The notes under the pieces are model-generated. The model saw only the letters and a list, made by a program, of their open reading frames with translations. It had not been told where the DNA came from and did no database searches. Of a stretch of 54,460 nucleotides of DNA, positions 15,210 through 28,016 are shown in pieces. The translations under genes were made by a program, and so were the position numbers. Each line of letters opens with the position of its first letter. Within the stretch, counting starts at the first letter, position 1. This DNA comes from Firmicutes bacterium CAG:475. Lineage in GTDB: Bacteria > Bacillota > Clostridia > Christensenellales > CAG-917. The stretch is taken from the NCBI GenBank assembly GCA_000434435.1, contig FR895563.1:1-54460 (forward strand), given 5' to 3'.

Positions 15210-16628
15210 ATGAGAATATTCGATACAAAAGTTCAACATCTCAAATACAAAGTTCTGCGCGAGGTCGCAAGAGAGGCGTGGGCGGGTACGCTCGACACCA
15301 ACGCCATCGACATCCCCAAGCGTATCGTTCCCGGCAAAGTGCCGACGATGCGTTGTTGCGTGTACAAAGAACGCGCGATTTTGGGTGAACGCGTCAAACT
15401 TGCAATGGGCGGACACAAGGACAATCCCAACGTCATCGAAGTCATCGATATTGCTTGCGACGAGTGTCCGATGGGCGGCTATGAAGTCACGGGCGCATGC
15501 CGAGGCTGTCTTATGCATCGCTGCGAAGACGTGTGCAAGTTCGGCGCAATCACGTTTGACAGTCAGCATGTGGCGCATATCGACAAGTCCAAGTGCAAAG
15601 AGTGTGGCGCATGCGCAAAAGTTTGCCCGTACAGCGCAATCACCAACCATAAACGTCCCTGCGAAATGGCTTGCAAGGTCAAGGCTATCACCATGGACGA
15701 AAACCGCGCGGCAAAAATCGACAATTCCAAGTGTATAGAGTGCGGCGCATGCGTATATCAATGCCCGTGGGGAGCAATCTCGGACAAGTCATACATTCTC
15801 GACGTTATCGACCTCATCAAAAAGAGCGAAAACAACACAAAATACAAGCTCTATGCGGTGGTTGCTCCGTCTATTTCCAGTCAGTTTACTTACGCAAAAC
15901 TCGGACAGGTCATCACCGGCTTGAAAGTTTTGGGATTCCATACGGTGGTCGAAGCGGCTCTCGGCGCAGATATGGTGCTTCTTTCCGAGGCAAGAGAGCT
16001 TGCCGAAAAAGGATTCCTTACAAGCTCCTGCTGTCCTGCGTTCGTATCCTATATCAAAAAGAATTTCCCTCAAATGGTGGAACATATATCCCACAACCTT
16101 TCGCCGATGGCAATGATTTCCAAGTATATCAAGGACACTACGCCCGGCGCAAAAGTTGTGTTCATCGGGCCTTGCACCGCCAAAAAAGCCGAGATTTTGG
16201 ACGAAAAAGTCAAGCCGTACGTCGATTCCGTCCTCACGTTCGAGGAGCTTCAAGCCCTCTTTGACAGCAAGGATATGGAAATCACGTCCCTTGCCGAAGG
16301 CGTTCTCGACAATGCCTCCTATTTCGGACGCATCTTTGCTCGTTGCGGAGGACTCAGCGACTCAATCAAACAATCTCTCAAAGAGCAAAACATCGATTTC
16401 GACCTCAAAGGTTGCGCTTGCGACGGCATCGACGAGTGCCGCATCGCACTCCTCAAAAAGAGCAAAAACCTCTCCGACGTCAACTTCATCGAAGGTATGG
16501 CGTGCACCGGCGGTTGCATCGGTGGTGCCGGCTGTCTTACCCACGGAGAGAAAAACAAGGCAGAAGTTGACAAGTACGGTCGCGAAGCGTTGGAAAAGAC
16601 CATTACCGACGCCGTGTCGTTGCTGTAA
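15210..16628 (+). CDS. hydA: Monomeric [FeFe]-hydrogenase (group B-like; HfsD/HydA2-like)
   Basis: The start is moved to the ATG at 15210, after AAGAGGA. There are several 4Fe-4S ferredoxin Cys motifs. The canonical H-cluster motifs are TSSCCPAF (about 16021), GPCTAKKAE and EGMACTGGCIGGAGC (about 16497). The group assignment is from memory of the N-terminal architecture. Confidence 0.9.
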   Translation: MRIFDTKVQHLKYKVLREVAREAWAGTLDTNAIDIPKRIVPGKVPTMRCCVYKERAILGERVKLAMGGHKDNPNVIEVIDIACDECPMGGYEVTGACRGCLMHRCEDVCKFGAITFDSQHVAHIDKSKCKECGACAKVCPYSAITNHKRPCEMACKVKAITMDENRAAKIDNSKCIECGACVYQCPWGAISDKSYILDVIDLIKKSENNTKYKLYAVVAPSISSQFTYAKLGQVITGLKVLGFHTVVEAALGADMVLLSEARELAEKGFLTSSCCPAFVSYIKKNFPQMVEHISHNLSPMAMISKYIKDTTPGAKVVFIGPCTAKKAEILDEKVKPYVDSVLTFEELQALFDSKDMEITSLAEGVLDNASYFGRIFARCGGLSDSIKQSLKEQNIDFDLKGCACDGIDECRIALLKKSKNLSDVNFIEGMACTGGCIGGAGCLTHGEKNKAEVDKYGREALEKTITDAVSLL

Positions 16629-16660
16629 TATTAAAATCGGTTTTTTGAGAATAGCGTTTA

Positions 16661-16698
16661 AAGCACCCCTTGATTTGATTGTCAAAGGGTGCTTTTTT
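16661..16698 (+). terminator. Intrinsic terminator after the hydrogenase gene
   Basis: The GC-rich stem GCACCC (16663-16668) / GGGTGC (16687-16692) is followed by T6. Confidence 0.7.
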
Positions 16699-16740
16699 AA
16701 CAACACGAGGGCAAGAGAATTTTGTAGTGTCATATTTCTC

Positions 16741-16769
16741 TTGACAAAACGGGGTTTCGGGCTTATAGT
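16741..16769 (+). promoter_or_regulatory. Near-consensus sigma-A promoter for the aromatic amino acid operon leader
   Basis: TTGACA (16741-16746), a 17-nt spacer, then TATAGT (16764-16769). Confidence 0.6.
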
Positions 16770-16802
16770 TTTCTCATCAAACAGGAGGCAGAATCGAAGT
16801 TT

Positions 16803-16949
16803 ATGAACAAAAAAGTCGTTTTGGGCAAATCAAATTCTTTCTCTTCTGCTTTCTCGGCAGTTTCTTTTGCGCGCGCTTCTCGATTTTTCGAGGGCGGATA
16901 CTACTATTATTATTTTAGCGGTAGGGATACTTTTGGCAAAGGACGCTGA
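16803..16949 (+). CDS. Candidate 48-codon leader peptide rich in Tyr/Phe (MNKKVVLGKSNSFSSAFSAVSFARASRFFEGGYYYYYFSGRDTFGKGR)
   Basis: I translated this by hand; it is below the size cutoff of the ORF track. It has five consecutive Tyr codons plus a Phe codon at 16899-16916, and 7 Phe in total. It sits between the promoter and an intrinsic terminator, upstream of pheA...tyrA. AGGAGG (16783-16788) lies 14 nt from the ATG, which is a long spacing. Confidence 0.5.
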   Translation: MNKKVVLGKSNSFSSAFSAVSFARASRFFEGGYYYYYFSGRDTFGKGR

Positions 16950-16972
16950 CGGCTGATATTTCGGATATACGG

Positions 16973-17006
16973 AAAAAAGCGATTCCTTTGCGGAGTCGCT
17001 TTTTTT
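16973..17006 (+). terminator. Intrinsic terminator (attenuator) in the 5' leader of the aro operon
   Basis: The stem AGCGATTCC (16978-16986) / GGAGTCGCT (16992-17000) has one G-U pair and a 5-nt loop. An A-run lies 5' of it and a T7 run 3'. It sits 138 nt before the pheA ATG. Confidence 0.7.
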
Positions 17007-17143
17007 GACGATTGAGTGAATTTTGGACAAATGTGATTGTTTTTCAAAAAATTCGCTCAGAATATTTGAAAAATCGGACGTATTGCAAAAAAATAGGTGG
17101 ATTTATAATCATAATTGATTATAATGGATGCAAAGAGGTAGTT

Positions 17144-18244
17144 ATGCAAGACATCAAAGAATCGAGAAAAATCATCAACGAAGTGGACGAGCAAATGGCG
17201 CGCCTGTTTGAACAACGCATGCAAGCGTGCGAGCAAATCGCTCTCTACAAAAAGGAAAACGGATTGAGCGTGCGCGACAGCGAGAGGGAAGAACAAGTTG
17301 TCGCAAACAACGCAAAACTCATTCAAAATCCCGCGCTCGTGCCCTATTACAAGGACTTTATTCGCTCGACTATGGACGTGTCTTGTCACTATCAAGCGTC
17401 GTTTATGCGCAAAATGAGAGTTGCGTATTGCGGAACGGCAGGCGCGTTTGCACACATTGCGGCAAAAAGGATGTATCCCGACGCCGAATATATCGCTTTT
17501 TCAAACTTTCAGGACGCGTACGACGCCACGCAAAAAGGAGATTGCGATTGCTCTGTGCTTCCGCTCGAAAACAGCTATGCCGGCGAAGTGGGCGAAGTGA
17601 TGGATTTAATTTTTTCGGGCGACCTTCACGTCAATCAAGTCGTCGACGTTGCGATCGCGCACAATCTCATCGCAAAAGCAGGGGCGCAAATCGAGGATAT
17701 AAAAATCGTTGTGAGCCATCCGCAAGCACTTGCGCAATGCGAAGAGTATATCAAAAAACACGGATTTGAAACGAGAGCATACTCCAACACCGCTCTTGCC
17801 GCAAAATACGTTGCAGAGGCGCAAGACGCATCGGTTGCTGCGCTTGCGTCGGATGAAACGGCAAGGATTTTCTCGCTTTCGATCGTGCAATCGCACGTCA
17901 ACGACAATCCAAACAACACCACTCGTTTCGCGGCGTTTTCAAGAGCGGAGAACGTACCCGTGTCCATAGGCAAGAGAGAGGACGAAAACTTCATTTTGGC
18001 ATTTACCGTGCAGAACGAATCGGGCGCGCTTGCAAGTGCGCTCAACATAATCGGCGCGCACAACTTCAACATGCGCACTCTACGCTCGCGCCCGATGAAA
18101 GATCTTCAATGGAACTATTATTTCTATATCGAGGCGGAGGGAAACGTTCGCACCGAAAACGGCAGAGATATGCTTCAGGAGCTTTCCGCGCTCTGTGCAA
18201 AACTCAAACTCGTGGGTAGCTACTTTGCCGACAACGTGAGGTAA
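17144..18244 (+). CDS. pheA: Bifunctional chorismate mutase / prephenate dehydratase (P-protein)
   Basis: The start is moved to the ATG at 17144, after AAAGAGG. It has an N-terminal AroQ-type chorismate mutase helix bundle (IINEVDEQMARLFEQRM), a prephenate dehydratase domain (VAYCGTAGAFAH...LPLENSYAGEV) and a C-terminal ACT domain. Confidence 0.93.
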   Translation: MQDIKESRKIINEVDEQMARLFEQRMQACEQIALYKKENGLSVRDSEREEQVVANNAKLIQNPALVPYYKDFIRSTMDVSCHYQASFMRKMRVAYCGTAGAFAHIAAKRMYPDAEYIAFSNFQDAYDATQKGDCDCSVLPLENSYAGEVGEVMDLIFSGDLHVNQVVDVAIAHNLIAKAGAQIEDIKIVVSHPQALAQCEEYIKKHGFETRAYSNTALAAKYVAEAQDASVAALASDETARIFSLSIVQSHVNDNPNNTTRFAAFSRAENVPVSIGKREDENFILAFTVQNESGALASALNIIGAHNFNMRTLRSRPMKDLQWNYYFYIEAEGNVRTENGRDMLQELSALCAKLKLVGSYFADNVR

Positions 18245-18246
18245 TT

Positions 18247-19248
18247 ATGATTTTGAAACGCAACGCAAAATGCCCCTACGATATAGTCGTTGACAGAGGA
18301 TTGCTCCAAAACATCGGGCAATTGCTCGACCTTGACAGAAAAGCGCTTCTTCTCACCGACGACGGCGTGCCGGAAGAGTATGCCCTCGTTGTTGAAAAAG
18401 CGTGCAAGAATTGTGTTACGGTGCGCTTAAAACAAGGCGAAGCGAGCAAAAATTTCGACAACTTCAAGTATATTTTGAGCGTAATGCTCCAAAACGGTTT
18501 TACGCGCAAAGACTGCGTTGTGGCACTCGGCGGCGGAGTTGTGGGGGATTTGGCGGGATTTGTCGCGTCGTGCTATATGCGCGGAGTTGATTTTTACAAT
18601 ATTCCCACCACGCTTTTGTCCCAGCTCGACTCGTCCATAGGCGGAAAAACCGCAATAGATTTCGAGGGAGTAAAGAACGTCGTGGGCAGTTTTTATCAGC
18701 CTGCAAAAGTGATTATCGACCTCGATACGCTCAAAACTCTTGACGACAGGCAGTTGCACGCAGGGCTTGTCGAGGGTATAAAAATGGCTCTCACGTCAAA
18801 CGGAAAACTGTTTGAATTTATCGAGCAAAGCGATGATTTGCAAAGGGATTTGCTCTGCATAGTGCAAAGTTCGCTCATCATAAAACGCGACGTGGTGGAG
18901 AAAGATCCGAAAGAGCAAGGGCTTCGCAAAGTGCTCAACTTCGGTCATACCCTCGGACATGCAATCGAAAGCGCGCAAGGCGGAAAACTTCTTCACGGCG
19001 AGTGCGTGGGCATAGGTATGCTGCCGATGTGTTCTCAAAAAGTGCGACAAAGACTTGTCAAAGTGCTTGAAAAATACGATTTGCCAACAAGCGCAAATTG
19101 CGATAAGGCGGAACTTTTGAGGCTTATGTCGCACGACAAAAAATCCGAAGGCGACAAAATTTGCGCTGTCGTGGTAGACGCTCCGGGTTCGTTCAGATTT
19201 GTGGAAACGACGGCAAAAGAAATTCTTGAAAGAGAGGAAAATTTATGA
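18247..19248 (+). CDS. aroB: 3-dehydroquinate synthase
   Basis: It has GGGVVGDLAGF and NFGHTLGHAIE motifs and starts 2 nt after pheA. Confidence 0.93.
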   Translation: MILKRNAKCPYDIVVDRGLLQNIGQLLDLDRKALLLTDDGVPEEYALVVEKACKNCVTVRLKQGEASKNFDNFKYILSVMLQNGFTRKDCVVALGGGVVGDLAGFVASCYMRGVDFYNIPTTLLSQLDSSIGGKTAIDFEGVKNVVGSFYQPAKVIIDLDTLKTLDDRQLHAGLVEGIKMALTSNGKLFEFIEQSDDLQRDLLCIVQSSLIIKRDVVEKDPKEQGLRKVLNFGHTLGHAIESAQGGKLLHGECVGIGMLPMCSQKVRQRLVKVLEKYDLPTSANCDKAELLRLMSHDKKSEGDKICAVVVDAPGSFRFVETTAKEILEREENL

Positions 19249-20339
19249 AAAACACGTTTGGACAAAGCATATCTCTCACCGTGTTCGGCGAAAGCCACGG
19301 CGCAGGCGTGGGTGTTGTTCTCGACGGACTTTGTTCGGGACTCGACGTAAACGACGCAAGCATAAAAACCGCGCTTTCTCGTCGCGCGCCCTCTACGTCA
19401 ACGGACACCGCAAGACGAGAAAGAGACGCGTATCAAATCCTCTCGGGCGTGTTCAACGGCAAGACCACGGGCACTCCGATTTGCATTTTCATACCCAACG
19501 AAAACACCGACAGCAAGGCTTACGAGTACGGAATCGCACGACCCTCTCACGCAGATTACGCTGCGTTTTGCAAGTACGGCGGATATGAAGATTATAGAGG
19601 CGGAGGACATTTTTCGGGACGCGTTACGGCAGGTATAGTCGCCACGGGAGCAATCTTGAAAGATGCTTTGAAAGGGCTCGGAATTTCAATCGGCACGCAT
19701 ATCCTCGAATGTGCAAACGTGCGCGATAACGAGTTTAACGATATACAAAACGAGGTTTTAAGTCTTGATTGTGAAAAATTCCCCGTTTTGAACGAAGATA
19801 AAGGAAAGCAAATGATTGCGAAAATCGAGGATGCAAAAGCAAATCTCGACAGCGTGGGAGGAATCACTCAAACGGCAATCGTAGGTTTGCCGGCAGGGGT
19901 TGGCGAGCCTATGTTCGACAGCGTGGAAGGCATGCTTTCGCACGCTATGTTCGCAATAGGCGCAGTCAAAGGTATAGAGTTCGGCAAAGGCTTCGAACTC
20001 GGCAAAATGCTAGGTTCTTCCGCAAACGACGCTTTCGTCATCGAGGACGGAAAAGTTAAGACTTCAACCAACAACAACGGCGGCATAAACGGCGGCATCA
20101 CAAACGGTATGCCCGTGCTTTTCAATTTGGCAATCAAGCCTACGCCGTCAATCGCACAAAAGCAAAATACGGTTGACTTCATAAACGGAAAGCAAACCGA
20201 AATCGAAATCGTCGGCAGACACGACCCGGCAATCGTCAGACGAATTTGCCCCGTCGTCGACAGCGTGAGCGCGCTTGTGGTGTGCGACCTTCTTGCTCAA
20301 AGATACGGCACGGACGTTTTCAAAAAGGGTATAAAATAA
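19245..20339 (+). CDS. aroC: Chorismate synthase
   Basis: FGESHG, SHADYAA and GGGHFSGR motifs are present. It has a 4-nt overlap with aroB. Confidence 0.95.
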   Translation: MKNTFGQSISLTVFGESHGAGVGVVLDGLCSGLDVNDASIKTALSRRAPSTSTDTARRERDAYQILSGVFNGKTTGTPICIFIPNENTDSKAYEYGIARPSHADYAAFCKYGGYEDYRGGGHFSGRVTAGIVATGAILKDALKGLGISIGTHILECANVRDNEFNDIQNEVLSLDCEKFPVLNEDKGKQMIAKIEDAKANLDSVGGITQTAIVGLPAGVGEPMFDSVEGMLSHAMFAIGAVKGIEFGKGFELGKMLGSSANDAFVIEDGKVKTSTNNNGGINGGITNGMPVLFNLAIKPTPSIAQKQNTVDFINGKQTEIEIVGRHDPAIVRRICPVVDSVSALVVCDLLAQRYGTDVFKKGIK

Positions 20340-21583
20340 TGAAGTACGGACTTATCGGCGAAAAACTTGCGCACAGCTATTCGTGCGAAATCCACGCGCT
20401 CATTGCGGATTACGAGTACGAGCTTAAACCGCTTGCCAAAGACGAGGTTGGCGAGTTTTTGAAGCGTAAAGATTTTTGTGCGATAAACGTAACGATACCC
20501 TACAAGGAAACCGTCATACCCTATCTCGACGTTATATCCGAGGAAGCAAGGTCAATCGGCGCGGTCAATACGATTGTCAACAAAAACGGAAAACTTTTCG
20601 GCTACAACACCGATTTTTACGGAATAAAAGCTCTTACGGAAAAGGCAGGCGTTGAAATTGCGGACAAAAACGTGCTTATTCTCGGCACTGGCGGCACGGC
20701 AAAGACGGCAAGCGCGGTTATGCGTACGCTGGGCGCAAAGAGCGTTGTAAAAGTGTCGCGTACAAAAAAGGACGACGCTATCGATTACGAAGAGGCAAAA
20801 ACGAAAAAAGACACGCAAGTGATTTTCAACGCAACCCCCGCGGGCATGTACCCGAGCGACGAGGGTTGCCCGATTGATTTAAGCGTGTTCGACAATCTCG
20901 AAGGCGTGCTCGACGCAATATATCATCCCCTATGCACCAATCTCGTTTTGCAAGCGAGAGAGAAGGGCGCAAAGGCTCTCGGCGGACTTTATATGCTCGT
21001 TGCGCAGGCGGTGTACGCATCGAGGCTGTTCCTCTCAAAAAGCATTGACGACTTAGATAAATACGAAATAGACGATACTTACGAGAAGATTTTGGCGCAA
21101 AAGCAAAACGTCGTGCTTGTGGGTATGCCGTCGTCGGGAAAATCAACAATCGGCAAGCGAGTTGCAAAAATGCTGGGCAGAGAATTTGTCGACACCGACG
21201 ATGAAATCGTCAAAAAAATAAATATGCCCATTGCCGAGTTTTTTGCCAAATACGGCGAGGCGGAGTTCAGAAAAATCGAGAGCGAAATCGTTTGCGAAAT
21301 CTCGAAGAGAAGCGCAATCGTCGTCGCAACCGGCGGCGGCGTAGTGCTTGACAAAAACAACGTGTCCGCACTAAGACGCAACGGCAAAATCGTGTTTTTG
21401 AACAGAAGCGTACAAAATCTCGTAGCGACAAAGTCAAGACCGCTTTCGTCAAACGCGAAAGACTTGAAAAATATGTTTGAACAACGCTATCCGATATACA
21501 AAGCGAGCGCGGATATAGAGATAAACAACGACGAAACCGTCGATATCGCCGTGCGCGAAATCGCAAAGGAGTTTGAAAAATGA
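20339..21583 (+). CDS. aroE/aroK: Fused shikimate dehydrogenase / shikimate kinase
   Basis: The start is moved to the ATG at 20339 (TAATG overlap with the aroC stop). The N-terminal part is AroE (MKYGLIGEKLAHSYS..., GTGGTAKTA). The C-terminal roughly 165 aa is AroK with Walker A GMPSSGKST (about 21125-21150). It is one continuous ORF. Confidence 0.9.
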   Translation: MKYGLIGEKLAHSYSCEIHALIADYEYELKPLAKDEVGEFLKRKDFCAINVTIPYKETVIPYLDVISEEARSIGAVNTIVNKNGKLFGYNTDFYGIKALTEKAGVEIADKNVLILGTGGTAKTASAVMRTLGAKSVVKVSRTKKDDAIDYEEAKTKKDTQVIFNATPAGMYPSDEGCPIDLSVFDNLEGVLDAIYHPLCTNLVLQAREKGAKALGGLYMLVAQAVYASRLFLSKSIDDLDKYEIDDTYEKILAQKQNVVLVGMPSSGKSTIGKRVAKMLGREFVDTDDEIVKKINMPIAEFFAKYGEAEFRKIESEIVCEISKRSAIVVATGGGVVLDKNNVSALRRNGKIVFLNRSVQNLVATKSRPLSSNAKDLKNMFEQRYPIYKASADIEINNDETVDIAVREIAKEFEK

Positions 21584-22014
21584 AAATTTTGGTGCTGAAC
21601 GGACCCAATATAAATATGCTGGGAATACGCGAGCCGCAAATTTACGGCAATCGCACATACAGCGACCTTGTACGGACAATAAAGAATTACTGTGACGAAA
21701 AGGATATAACGGTCGAGTTTTTTCAATCCAACCACGAAGGCGCGCTCATCGACAAAATTCAGGACGCTTACTTTTCAAAGACGGACGGCATCGTGATAAA
21801 TCCGGCAGGCTACACACACACGAGCGTTGCGATTGCCGACGCATTGAAGGGCGTGGATATTCCGTTTGTCGAAGTGCATATCTCGAAAGTCGACGAAAGA
21901 GAGGATTTTCGCAAAATAAGTTTTGTGAGAAATTACGCAACCAAAACGATTTCGGGCAAAGGTTTCGAGGGGTATATCGAGGCGATAGATACGCTTGCAA
22001 ACCTCAAAAAGTGA
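21580..22014 (+). CDS. aroQ: Type II 3-dehydroquinate dehydratase
   Basis: MKILVLNGPNINMLGIREPQIYG...INPAGYTHTSVA is present. It has an ATGA overlap with the previous gene. Confidence 0.95.
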   Translation: MKILVLNGPNINMLGIREPQIYGNRTYSDLVRTIKNYCDEKDITVEFFQSNHEGALIDKIQDAYFSKTDGIVINPAGYTHTSVAIADALKGVDIPFVEVHISKVDEREDFRKISFVRNYATKTISGKGFEGYIEAIDTLANLKK

Positions 22015-22145
22015 GTGAACAAGCATAGAAAACGGCAAAAACATAAGCGTAAAAAGCATGCGAAACACGCAGAAAATCGTATAAAATAACATTCAAAAAC
22101 TGCGAAAAATAATACGCGAAATAAACGGCATAAAAAACAATAGAA

Positions 22146-23396
22146 ATGAGAGTTAAAATCGAAAAATCCAAAGCGGTCGGCACAGCCGTCGCGCCACCGT
22201 CGAAAAGCATTGCGCACAGACTTTTGATTGCGTGCGCCTTGGCAAGCGGAAAAAGCGAAGTGAAGGGCATCTCGGACAGCGAAGATATGCTTGCCACTTT
22301 GGATTGTATAAAAGCTCTCGGAGTCGACGCACAAAAGGACGGCGACGTCGTGAGAATACGCGCAAATGCAAAAGCAAAAAATTGCGAGTGCGAGAGTAGC
22401 GTTTTCAACGATACGAAAAGCGTAAACAATAAGGTGATTTTCGATTGCCGAGAGAGCGGAAGCACGTTGAGATTCTTTATTCCCGTAGCAAGCGTTTTTT
22501 GTGACGAGTGCGAGTTTGTAGGCTCGAAAAGATTGCTCGAAAGAGGTGTGGGAATTTATGAAAAAACGCTGGGTGAAAACGGCGTGAGCGTGCAATCTCA
22601 AAAGGACGAAATCGTCGTGTCGGGCAGGCTTAAAAGCGGCACGTACACGCTTGACGGAAACGTGAGCAGTCAATACGTTTCCGGGCTTATGTTTGCGCTT
22701 CCGCTGCTTGACGGGGACAGCAAAATAATCGTGCGAGAACCCGTTGAAAGTCGGGCGTATATCGACCTTACGACAGACGTTTTGAAAAAGGTCGGAATCG
22801 AGATTGTCGAAGAGCAAAAAAACGTGTTTTCGATAAAAGGCAATCAAAAATACACATGCGGACAATATGCCGTCGAGGGCGATTGGTCAAACGGCGCGAT
22901 GTTGCTTGCGCTTGGCGAAATCGGCGGAAGAGTGGACGTTGTAGGACTTGACGAAAACAGCGTGCAAGGGGACAAAATTTGCAAAGATATTTTCAAAAAA
23001 CTCGACGATAAAAACGTTGTTGTCGATCTTGCGAATTGCCCCGATTTAGCACCGATTGCGTTTGTCGCGGCGGCGGTGAAAAACGGCGCGACTTTTACGG
23101 GAACAAGGCGTTTGAGAATAAAAGAAAGCGACAGAGCGACGGCTATGGCGCAAGAACTTGCAAAATTCGGAATTGTCGTAGATGTGCATGAAAACGACGT
23201 TGTCGTGCACAAAAACGATATAAAAACACCGTGTTGTGACATTTGCGGACACAACGACCATAGAATCGTTATGGCGTGCAGCGTGCTTTTGAGCATGACG
23301 GGCGGATATATAGACGGCGCGGAAGCGGTGAAAAAAAGCTTCCCGAATTTCTTTAATACCATAGGCAGACTCGGAGTGAAATATGAAGTTGAATAA
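22146..23396 (+). CDS. aroA: 3-phosphoshikimate 1-carboxyvinyltransferase (EPSP synthase)
   Basis: PPSKSIAHRLLIACALASG, DCRESGSTLRF and LRIKESDR motifs are present. No SD is visible upstream; the leader is A-rich. Confidence 0.93.
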   Translation: MRVKIEKSKAVGTAVAPPSKSIAHRLLIACALASGKSEVKGISDSEDMLATLDCIKALGVDAQKDGDVVRIRANAKAKNCECESSVFNDTKSVNNKVIFDCRESGSTLRFFIPVASVFCDECEFVGSKRLLERGVGIYEKTLGENGVSVQSQKDEIVVSGRLKSGTYTLDGNVSSQYVSGLMFALPLLDGDSKIIVREPVESRAYIDLTTDVLKKVGIEIVEEQKNVFSIKGNQKYTCGQYAVEGDWSNGAMLLALGEIGGRVDVVGLDENSVQGDKICKDIFKKLDDKNVVVDLANCPDLAPIAFVAAAVKNGATFTGTRRLRIKESDRATAMAQELAKFGIVVDVHENDVVVHKNDIKTPCCDICGHNDHRIVMACSVLLSMTGGYIDGAEAVKKSFPNFFNTIGRLGVKYEVE

Positions 23397-24252
23397 GGAT
23401 ATGAAAATTCTCATAGTCGGGCTCGGTCTTATCGGCGGAAGCTATGCCGAAGCTCTTTCGAAAAAGGGCTATGAAGTGGGGGCTATCGACCAAAAACAAG
23501 AAGCTATCGACTTTGCTTTGCACAAGGGATATATCGCAAGCGGAAAGACGAGCGTCGACAAAGACTACGTAGGAAAATTCGATATAGTCGTGTTTGCGCT
23601 TTATCCGCATGCGTTTGTCGAATGGATTGAAAAATATCAAAACTGCTTGAAATCGGGCGCGATTGTAACCGACGTTACGGGCGTAAAAGGCGGCGTCGTG
23701 TGCGACGTGCAAAACGCGTTGCGCAAGGACGTGGAGTTTATTGCCGCGCATCCCATGGCGGGAAGAGAATGTTCGGGCGTAGAGAACGCGAAAGCGGAGA
23801 TTTTCGAGGGCGCGAATTACATCGTCGTTCCCACCGAGAGAAACACGCAAGAGGCAATCGAATTGTGCAAGGATTTGGGCAGAGAACTGGGCTTTAAACA
23901 TATAAGCGAACTGTCCGTCAAACAGCACGACGAAACGGTGGGATTTCTGTCCCATCTGACGCACTGCATCGCCGTATCGCTGATGGTGTGCAAGGAGAGC
24001 GGACATCTTGCCGATTATACGGGGGATTCCTTCCGCGATCTCACCCGTATCGCAAAGATAAACGACGAGATGTGGAGCGAGCTGTTTCTTTTAAACAAAG
24101 ACGAAATCGTCGAACAAATGAACCTTTTCGAGCAGCATTTCGGCAAGCTCAAAGAGTGTATTCAAAACGACGACAGAGAAGGCATTCGAGAGATGATGCG
24201 CCTTTCGACAAAGCGTCGCAAGGTTTTCGATAAATGCAACGAGGAGAATTAA
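23383..24252 (+). CDS. tyrA: Prephenate dehydrogenase
   Basis: It has the Rossmann motif ILIVGLGLIGGS and the AAHPMAG motif. The ATG at 23383 has GGAG 6 nt upstream; an alternative ATG lies at 23401. Confidence 0.9.
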   Translation: MKLNKDMKILIVGLGLIGGSYAEALSKKGYEVGAIDQKQEAIDFALHKGYIASGKTSVDKDYVGKFDIVVFALYPHAFVEWIEKYQNCLKSGAIVTDVTGVKGGVVCDVQNALRKDVEFIAAHPMAGRECSGVENAKAEIFEGANYIVVPTERNTQEAIELCKDLGRELGFKHISELSVKQHDETVGFLSHLTHCIAVSLMVCKESGHLADYTGDSFRDLTRIAKINDEMWSELFLLNKDEIVEQMNLFEQHFGKLKECIQNDDREGIREMMRLSTKRRKVFDKCNEEN

Positions 24253-24253
24253 A

Positions 24254-25282
24254 ATGAATTTGGAATTCAAAAGAAAACTGCCCACATTGCAAGAGATAAA
24301 GGCAATGTATCCCATAGACGAACAACTCGCGTCGCAAAAAAAAGCGAGAGACGTCGCACTCAAAGACATTTTCGAGGGAAAGGACGACAGACTTGTTTTG
24401 GTGATAGGCCCTTGTTCGGCGGACAGAGAGGACGCCGTTCTGGACTATATTTCGCGGCTTCGCGACGTGCAAGAGAAGGTGAAGGACAAAATCTTTATCG
24501 TTCCGCGTATATATACCAACAAGCCGCGTACCACGGGCGACGGCTACAAGGGTATGTTGCATCAACCCGATCCGCATGCAAGCGAAAACATGCTAAAAGG
24601 GCTTATCGCAATCCGCAAACTGCATATAAAAGCGTTGCGTGAAACGGGCTTTTCCTGCGCGGACGAGATGCTTTATCCCGAAAACCACCTTTATTTGTCC
24701 GACGTGCTGTGCTACGTCGCGGTGGGCGCAAGGTCGGTTGAAAACCAATTCCATCGCCTCACCGCAAGCGGGTTAGATATTCCCGTGGGCATGAAAAACC
24801 CAACCAGCGGCGATTTGTCCGTCATGATGAATTCAATCCGCGCCGCACAACATCCGCATACGTTTGTTTATTCGGGCTGGGAAGTCAACTCAAAAGGCAA
24901 TCCGCTTGCTCACGCAATATTGAGAGGCTCGGTGGACAAAAACGGACAGACGATCCCCAACTATCATTACGAGGACTTGCGCAAACTTGCCGATTTGTAC
25001 GCGCAAAGCGGTCTTGAAAATCCTGCCGTCATCGTGGATACCAATCATTCAAACTCAGCAAAAAGATTTTTCGAGCAACCTCGTATCGCAAAAGAAGTGT
25101 TGCACAGCATGCGCCAATCGCAAGATATAAACGCAATCGTCAAAGGGCTTATGATAGAGTCCTACATCGAAGAAGGCGCGCAATCTTCCGACGGCGGCGT
25201 GTACGGCAAATCCATCACCGATCCGTGCCTTGGCTGGCAAGACACCGAACGACTGATTCTGGAATTGGCAGATCAGCTTTGA
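24254..25282 (+). CDS. 3-deoxy-7-phosphoheptulonate (DAHP) synthase, class I-alpha (AroF/G/H family; isozyme not assignable)
   Basis: LVIGPCS, KPRTT, GARS.E.Q.HR, ASGL..PVGMKN and ILRG motifs run collinear with E. coli AroG as I remember it. Confidence 0.9.
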   Translation: MNLEFKRKLPTLQEIKAMYPIDEQLASQKKARDVALKDIFEGKDDRLVLVIGPCSADREDAVLDYISRLRDVQEKVKDKIFIVPRIYTNKPRTTGDGYKGMLHQPDPHASENMLKGLIAIRKLHIKALRETGFSCADEMLYPENHLYLSDVLCYVAVGARSVENQFHRLTASGLDIPVGMKNPTSGDLSVMMNSIRAAQHPHTFVYSGWEVNSKGNPLAHAILRGSVDKNGQTIPNYHYEDLRKLADLYAQSGLENPAVIVDTNHSNSAKRFFEQPRIAKEVLHSMRQSQDINAIVKGLMIESYIEEGAQSSDGGVYGKSITDPCLGWQDTERLILELADQL

Positions 25283-27939: not shown

Positions 27940-28016
27940 GGAGGCATAGCCCAGTTGGTTAGAGCGCTACGTTGACATCGTAGAGGTCATAAGTTCGAGT
28001 CTTATTGTCTCCACCA
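27940..28016 (+). tRNA. tRNA-Val: tRNA-Val (anticodon GAC), CCA encoded
   Basis: I folded the cloverleaf by hand. The acceptor stem is GGAGGCA/TGTCTCC (one G-U pair). The D arm is GCCC-AGTTGGTTA-GAGC. The anticodon stem is CTACG/CGTAG with loop TTGACAT. The T arm is ATAAG-TTCGAGT-CTTAT. The discriminator is A, followed by CCA; total length is 77 nt. Confidence 0.92.

Follow-up and report, generated by a model that had tools for sequence, protein, structure and literature searches.

A predicted leader-peptide attenuator with a tyrosine/phenylalanine codon run upstream of the pheA-aro-tyrA operon of gut Clostridia

How is the synthesis of phenylalanine and tyrosine controlled in uncultured gut Clostridia? 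The question is raised by a stretch of 54,460 nucleotides (nt) of contig FR895563.1 of Firmicutes bacterium CAG:475, which is called the window here and whose positions are used for all coordinates. On its forward strand, an operon of eight genes (17144-25282; pheA, aroB, aroC, aroE-aroK, aroQ, aroA, tyrA and DAHP synthase, assigned with Pfam) is preceded by a short open reading frame (ORF) with a run of Tyr and Phe codons, and by an intrinsic terminator. Aromatic genes of Firmicutes are usually regulated through T-box or TRAP systems. In a preliminary description of the sequence, the region had been read as a ribosome-mediated attenuator. Sequence comparison and folding models now make it very probable that this region is a leader-peptide attenuator, by which expression of the pheA-aro-tyrA operon follows how far tRNA-Tyr and tRNA-Phe are charged.

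The leader promoter is located at 16741-16769 (-35 TTGACA at 16741-16746, spacer of 17 nt, -10 TATAGT at 16764-16769). It reached 11 of 12 consensus matches in a promoter scan, in agreement with the near-consensus promoter described before. The Shine-Dalgarno (SD) sequence AGGAGG (16783-16788) is found 14 nt 5' of the ATG of the leader ORF, which comprises 48 codons plus a TGA stop codon (16803-16949, stop codon at 16947-16949; product MNKKVVLGKSNSFSSAFSAVSFARASRFFEGGYYYYYFSGRDTFGKGR). Codons 33-38 (16899-16916) read TAC TAC TAT TAT TAT TTT and code for five Tyr and one Phe, and seven Phe residues are present in the peptide in all. The ORF, its YYYYYF run and the number of Phe residues given in the preliminary description were reproduced by sequence reading and translation. 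The same holds for the SD-to-ATG spacing of 14 nt, which is kept by the closest relatives, whereas a spacing of about 5 nt was found in the related loci L013 and L012.

Upstream of the leader, a hydrogenase gene ends at 16628. A terminator-like hairpin with a T-run was recognised by eye 3' of this gene at about 16657-16699. Because the hydrogenase gene has such a hairpin of its own, the leader was regarded as a separate transcription unit. The leader ORF is the only intergenic small ORF of the window that bears an amino-acid run, and dozens of related genomes share the whole arrangement, which therefore goes beyond chance.

The intrinsic terminator (16973-17006) is composed of an A6 tract (16973-16978), the stem GCGATTCC/GGAGTCGC (16979-16986 with 16992-16999), the loop TTTGC and a T7 tract (17000-17006), as had been described. 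Its folding energy of -20.8 kcal/mol (z = -4.8) was equalled by none of 200 shuffled sequences, and its end is separated from the ATG of pheA (17144) by 137 nt. The 5' strand of the predicted antiterminator, designated segment 2 (GCAAAGGACGCT, 16936-16947), overlaps the last four sense codons of the leader and reaches one base into the stop codon. The complementarity of its core GCAAAGGA (16936-16943) to TCCTTTGC (16984-16991) had been noticed before and was confirmed. The antiterminator had been taken to be only 8 base pairs (bp) long; this estimate was too low. Segment 2 pairs with 16978-16981 and 16984-16991, which gives 12 bp with a 2-nt bulge, and a small apical hairpin (16953-16975) between segments 2 and 3 closes the antiterminator loop. 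A hairpin is present at this place in L023-type leaders as well. Segment 3 (16978-16991) is the stretch common to terminator and antiterminator. The alternative structure (16930-16991) folds with -19.3 kcal/mol (z = -3.9; equalled by 0 of 200 shuffles). The energies of the two structures, -19.3 and -20.8 kcal/mol, are nearly equal, as expected for a switch.

On these elements the following mechanism is proposed. Transcription driven by the promoter at 16741-16769 would initiate near 16776, where the start is placed from the sequence, and a ribosome would translate the 48-codon leader. With Tyr-tRNA or Phe-tRNA in short supply, the ribosome would stall at 16899-16916, and the end of its footprint would remain about 7-20 nt short of segment 2. 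Segment 2 (16936-16947) would then be free to capture 16978-16991 once this stretch is transcribed; the 5' arm and the loop of the terminator would be sequestered, and transcription would read through into pheA. With ample Tyr and Phe, the ribosome would reach the stop codon at 16947 and mask segment 2, the terminator (16979-17006) would form, and transcription would stop. Translation of the ORF, the stalling and the actual 3' ends of the transcripts are predictions of this scheme.

Related loci were collected by a PheA-based search with one genome per species. This search resulted in 68 loci, nearly all of them from uncultured gut or rumen Clostridia. Thirty-nine loci with a leader were analysed in detail; they fall into a close and a distant clade, with PheA identities of 77-92% and 57-65%, respectively. 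The preliminary description had made its reading depend on conservation in relatives, and this conservation was found: in all 39 loci (PheA identity 57-92%), pheA is preceded by a short ORF that carries a Tyr/Phe run in frame, and by a terminator (-15 to -22 kcal/mol). The order of modules is common to both clades and comprises a TTGACA/TATAAT promoter, a ribosome-binding site (RBS), a variable N-terminus, a hairpin within the ORF, the aromatic run, a segment of the GCAAAGGA type, the stop codon and the terminator. TTGACA(AA) together with TATAGT or TATAAT is kept at the equivalent position in close and distant clades. The 5' arm and the loop of the terminator read TTCCTTTGC or a variant of it in the relatives, and across the leaders the stop codon sits on or beside segment 2.

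Selection on the peptide and selection on the RNA were then separated. An ATG-started ORF spanning the run is present in the Tyr/Phe frame in 38 loci (the 39th starts with GTG), compared to 12 and 2 of the 39 loci for the other two frames, and an SD-like sequence was found 4-20 nt upstream of the start codon in 32 of the leaders. The in-frame runs comprise 3-12 codons and are present in every leader. Both synonymous codons are used for Tyr as well as for Phe (TAT 83, TAC 43, TTT 62, TTC 11 in total), and the aromatic run is conserved as amino acids in the sequences compared. Tyr and Phe together account for 19.5% of the leader residues across the 39 loci.

This conservation of the frame bears on an attenuator that works without translation, in which an RNA-binding protein or an uncharged tRNA would act on the UAY/UUY-rich stretch or on the hairpin within the ORF (hairpin P), in the way of TRAP, PyrR or T-box systems. 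The customary T-box or TRAP control of aromatic genes in Firmicutes, the conservation of hairpin P as RNA and the poor RBS-ATG spacing in the window would suit such a mechanism. Against it, start codon, RBS and open frame are kept despite the highly variable sequence and length of the N-terminal part, the Tyr/Phe run stays in frame with synonymous variation, and the stop codon has its place on or beside segment 2. Furthermore, no match of the leader to a T-box or any other Rfam family was obtained even at E <= 10. An attenuator of this kind is considered very unlikely.

Segment 2 is conserved as RNA, because its core occurs in all three reading frames. It is located 16-21 nt 3' of the run in most relatives, within the ORF or just past the stop codon, and is read as GGC AAA GGA CGC (GKGR*) in the window and as CAA AGG ACG (QRT*) in the L023 group. 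The distance to the stall site corresponds to about one ribosome half-footprint.

Selection on RNA pairing was also evident in hairpin P, which is located inside the ORF (16877-16894), 5-6 nt 5' of the run; its core CTCGA-TTTT-TCGAG (16879-16892) codes for S-R-F-F-E. For hairpin P and the terminator together, 88% of the pairs are retained, compared to 38-54% in slid controls, and 86 cells of the alignment show a double change, compared to 28 +/- 4.5 in shuffles (equalled in 0 of 500). The terminator helix alone is 90% paired, with changes on both sides at 5 of 13 pairs. The equivalent of hairpin P in the distant clade, GCAGTACGA-N6-TCGTACTGC, is 86% paired, with changes on both sides at 5 of 9 pairs.

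These results bear on a further explanation, according to which the peptide itself is functional, either as an arrest peptide that senses free Tyr or Phe, or as a small hydrophobic protein. The motif A-(V/S)-R-F-(F/Y)-x-x-x-(Y/F)n is common to the clades, and public annotations treat the ORF as protein-coding; entries for the exact leader peptide of the window bear only the name 'unknown [Firmicutes bacterium CAG:475]' or 'hypothetical protein'. However, the shared motif coincides with hairpin P, the pairs of which covary while the amino acids change. The N-termini are unconserved at leader lengths of 21-112 amino acids, and the frame in which the conserved 3' element is read differs between leaders, with all three in use. 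An arrest under abundant amino acid would, moreover, be the wrong logic for a biosynthetic operon. A functional peptide was judged extremely improbable. As specific candidates, a TRAP-like protein-binding site, a ribosomally synthesised and post-translationally modified peptide, and an arrest peptide were ruled out on the basis of the conserved ORF frame and the frame-independent conservation of segment 2.

The evidence for the antiterminator consists of retained complementarity, slid controls, the duplex energies of own compared to permuted partners, and lineage-specific matching variants. In the antiterminator alignment, 85% of the cells are paired, compared to 32-60% after sliding the partner strand. 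The duplexes of segment 2 with the terminator of the same locus reach -15 to -24 kcal/mol in most loci. Summed over the loci, the energy of the own partners is -584 kcal/mol, compared to -530 +/- 13 kcal/mol for permuted partners; 1 of 10,000 permutations was as good, a figure which is inflated by the relatedness of the loci. Where the arm of the terminator is altered, segment 2 is found to match, as in L014 (GAAGCCGC with GCGGCTTC), L039 (GGAAGTC with GGCTTCC) and L043 (GGAAGTC with GACTTCC).

The switch was modelled in silico by calculating base-pair probabilities of the RNA left free to fold with the ribosome at different positions. With the ribosome stalled on the run, the mean occupancy of the terminator 5' arm by upstream RNA was 0.71 (0.62 in the window); with the ribosome at the stop codon, it decreased to 0.25 (0.09 in the window). 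Masking of the ribosome-covered segments, which had been put forward as a check in the preliminary description, thus yielded the expected switch. Together with the conservation and the retained complementarity of the antiterminator, it supports the reading as a ribosome-mediated attenuator.

The link of the leader to pheA was examined independently of PheA by scanning all genomes with the DNA pattern of hairpin P. The scan resulted in 48 sites. One was a false match inside a gene, two were at contig ends, and the rest precede a pheA homologue or operon; five of these have a DUF554 gene between terminator and pheA. Scanning for segment 2 plus terminator recovered the pheA leaders and no other copies in this lineage, and a search of the lineage for paralogous attenuators, i.e. 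the same segment 2/terminator scaffold with other codon runs, gave none. Matches to segment 2 plus terminator outside the lineage (L208-L227, in the Bacteroidota metagenome-assembled genome JAYUZN01) were rejected; they are more than 15 copies of an unrelated inverted repeat, GCAAAGGACG..CGRTTCCTTTGC, and not an attenuator.

The DUF554 genes code for membrane proteins and were observed between leader/terminator and pheA at L071:5491-6198 (minus strand) and L114:920-1627 (plus strand), in L091, L106 and L111, and probably in L053. From this position, the DUF554 gene would be co-regulated with Phe/Tyr synthesis. This gives a hint of a transport function of DUF554 proteins, with an aromatic amino acid or a precursor as the substrate.

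Between terminator and pheA of the window, a conserved block was found next to the gene (17083-17143). It comprises TTGCAA-15-TATAAT (17083-17109), a palindrome (17103-17124) and the RBS of pheA. The first of these had been mentioned before as a second possible promoter; it is present, and the block is kept throughout the close clade, even in members without a leader (L002, L005, L006, L008 and L154). The palindrome, TTATAATCA-TAAT-TGATTATAA, is perfect over 22 bp, contains TATAAT in each half, lies 20 nt 5' of the pheA RBS and has no second copy in the window. Within the relevant lineage, it was found upstream of pheA only. When a regulon of the palindrome was sought, all other matches fell in unrelated genomes and had no aro, phe or tyr gene in their neighbourhood. 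The sequence suggests that the block is probably a second promoter, an operator or both.

This block provides the basis for another explanation, in which the leader forms a small transcription unit of its own, for a small RNA or a small protein; its terminator would be constitutive, and pheA would be transcribed solely from the proximal block (17083-17125). The strong promoter and strong terminator of the leader and the 137-nt gap to pheA, which holds a conserved promoter-like and palindromic block that leaderless close relatives retain, are in favour of it. In L013 and the whole distant clade, however, the proximal block is not present and the terminator ends only 27-100 nt 5' of pheA, so that the leader promoter must drive the pheA operon there. 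In addition, the leader was never found away from pheA-containing operons, and an independent unit leaves unexplained why an aromatic run precedes a Phe/Tyr operon and why a conserved antiterminator is placed at ribosome-footprint distance from the run. This explanation is regarded as very unlikely.

Two further pairings were predicted in the leader RNA. Segment 1 (TTTCTTTTGC, 16861-16870) could pair with segment 2 in untranslated RNA. The pairing with 16936-16943 is part of the minimum-free-energy fold of the window, and the motif is visible in relatives; it might conceivably act as a default-off step when translation fails. The second is a possible RBS-sequestering helix (16783-16854), in which AGGAGGCAGAA (16783-16793) pairs over 11 bp with TTCTGCTTTCT (16844-16854, leader codons 14-18). 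It is also part of the minimum-free-energy fold of the window, shows one or two compensatory changes in close relatives and has an analogue in L023-type leaders; compared to shuffles it is weak (mean z = -1.1). This helix may limit repeated ribosome loading or re-initiation.

Several results weigh against the leader-peptide attenuator. The SD-ATG spacing of the window exceeds the optimum. Covariation in the antiterminator columns was not above the shuffle control, because these columns are nearly invariant. In the switch model, only 21 of the 39 loci passed a strict contrast (occupancy of at least 0.6 with the ribosome stalled and at most 0.4 with the ribosome at the stop codon), and the contrast was modest in about half of the loci. 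Without a ribosome, the equilibrium model gave an occupancy of 0.64 and did not predict termination as the default, and the pairing of segments 1 and 2 was no better than shuffles across the loci. Finally, part of the pheA transcription in the window may bypass the attenuator, because the proximal block persists in relatives without the leader.

Hairpin P probably makes RNA polymerase pause and thereby keeps it in step with the ribosome. Its counterpart in the distant clade is a helix of 9-12 bp with the U-rich run directly 3' and scores as terminator-like. At L025:2804-2833 and L014:2806-2829, the hairpin in the ORF and the abutting Tyr/Phe run score as an intrinsic terminator, and the codons double as the U-tract. 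A covarying hairpin abutting the run is found in most relatives; in the window the hairpin is weaker and located 6 nt from the run. An attenuator with two checkpoints is tentatively suggested by this layout, in which hairpin P and the U-rich run would form a pause or terminator-like signal, passable only by a polymerase that is closely followed by a ribosome. It is conceivable, at the same tentative level, that the ribosome melts the hairpin and so enforces coupling ahead of the decision between terminator and antiterminator, with the same codons serving as sensor and as pause or termination signal.

Some leaders and their surroundings deviate from the common form. Short leaders of 21-24 amino acids (e.g. 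MKNFVDNKYYYYYFFNNVSIRKGR) were found in L062, L176 and L189; in these, the N-terminal part and hairpin P are missing, whereas run, segment 2 and terminator are retained. In L023, L027, L028, L030, L031, L033, L034 and L036, the run is followed by one Gly codon and then a Trp codon (e.g. FYYYGW), so that all three aromatic amino acids are represented beside the stall site. At L100:4210-4233 (minus strand), on the same contig as L022, the sequence F-C-C-F was found in place of F-Y-Y-F in relatives (TAY to TGC); this leader may be a decaying or re-tuned sensor. L010 contains an insertion of about 200 nt made up of repeated TTGCACGCTTTGCAAACAA-like units, and its spacer between terminator and pheA is 338 nt long. 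A block of about 150 nt (..GGGAAAGCCCGAAGGGAAGGGGTGA..ACGCCGTCAAACT..TGTAGAGGAAGAAC) is common to L002, L005 and L008, where it is located upstream of pheA, and to L003, L004 and L009, where it precedes the leader promoter. This block is perhaps a mobile or repeated element tied to the loss of the leader.

Within the operon, the pheA product combines the Pfam domains CM_2, PDT and ACT, i.e. chorismate mutase, prephenate dehydratase and ACT. The gene designated aroE-aroK (20246-21583) codes for an N-terminal shikimate dehydrogenase domain and a shikimate kinase in one ORF. Its true start is probably further downstream, because with the listed start the gene would share 94 nt with aroC. The only RNA gene of the window detected with Rfam and ARAGORN is a tRNA-Val (27940-28016, anticodon GAC).

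Comparison to known systems was done with Rfam and the literature. Nothing relevant was found in the leader, either by searching 16600-17200 at E <= 10 or by searching the whole window at the gathering threshold, including Phe_leader, Leu/Phe leader and T-box. As no Rfam match was obtained at E <= 10, the leader is not a member of these three families. No T-box was found upstream of pheA in 20 relatives lacking the leader, and a description of this pheA leader family was not found in the literature. A T-box riboswitch resembles the leader in conditional termination within a 5' leader in response to tRNA charging; it binds the tRNA directly, whereas the leader of the window would sense charging via the translating ribosome.

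The closest likeness in logic is to pheL-pheA of E. coli (Rfam Phe_leader; PMC3082878), in which a leader peptide with aromatic codons and alternative antiterminator and terminator structures immediately precede the gene for a chorismate mutase-prephenate dehydratase. Homology in sequence or structure was not detectable, with no Rfam match at E <= 10. The pheL peptide is short and contains Phe codons only, whereas the leader of the window has 48 codons with mainly a Tyr run, carries an additional hairpin in the ORF before the run and controls an eight-gene pheA-aro-tyrA operon. The hosts differ as well, a Clostridium in the one case and a gamma-proteobacterium in the other.

A Tyr-run leader had been called rare in the preliminary description. 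This is a fair statement, although a precedent exists in the AroR leader peptide of Corynebacterium glutamicum, which contains Phe-Tyr-Phe and is encoded upstream of aroF. According to the summary of Neshat et al. (2014) in PMC11802643, attenuation was shown experimentally under limitation, and the aroR-aroF attenuator responds to Phe and not to Tyr. As far as the description in this summary extends, both systems place a mixed Phe/Tyr leader peptide before an operon of the common aromatic pathway; they differ in that C. glutamicum is an actinobacterium, aroF is the first gene, and the run has only three aromatic codons. A second relative in kind is the uORFC-13-1 motif upstream of aroF in Acholeplasma, reported to contain 'at least one' Phe codon but not a run of Tyr codons (PMC8632094). 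It is likewise a predicted upstream ORF with U-rich Phe codons, directly followed by an intrinsic terminator and placed ahead of a gene of the shikimate pathway, and its host lineage is related to Firmicutes; going by its description, it is set apart by the lineage and the regulated gene. No such ORF was found upstream of the chorismate mutase gene in the Acholeplasmatales loci L067 and L068.

In Firmicutes, leader peptides are usually replaced by T-boxes (PMC2965389). His, Leu and Leu/Phe leader-peptide attenuators occur sporadically in place of T-boxes, with the Bacillus cereus group, Peptostreptococcaceae, Erysipelotrichales, Streptococcus, Lactococcus and Staphylococcus aureus as hosts, and in Oscillospirales- or Christensenellales-like gut Clostridia none was reported for the aromatic operon (PMC2965389, PMC9413887, PMC5314783, PMC5794164). 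Their architecture is the same as that of the leader described here; amino acids, operons and lineages are different.

The mechanism itself is already textbook knowledge and is left unchanged by the pheA leader family, and mixed Phe/Tyr leaders have a precedent in aroR of Corynebacterium. What is added is a previously unannotated, well-supported cis-regulatory family in abundant uncultured Clostridia of the human and animal gut, one leader peptide variant of which alone occurs on nearly 900 contigs. The annotation of the leader ORFs as 'hypothetical protein' is corrected, and DUF554 membrane proteins are linked to aromatic amino-acid metabolism via their likely co-regulation. A compact Tyr/Phe-responsive switch would also be on offer for engineering. 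For the organisms themselves, the finding means that the whole Phe/Tyr pathway is very probably under classical leader-peptide attenuation and not under the expected T-box or TRAP control, which would make these gut Clostridia, members of a group in which switches of this kind are uncommon, a clear case of a leader peptide in place of a T-box.

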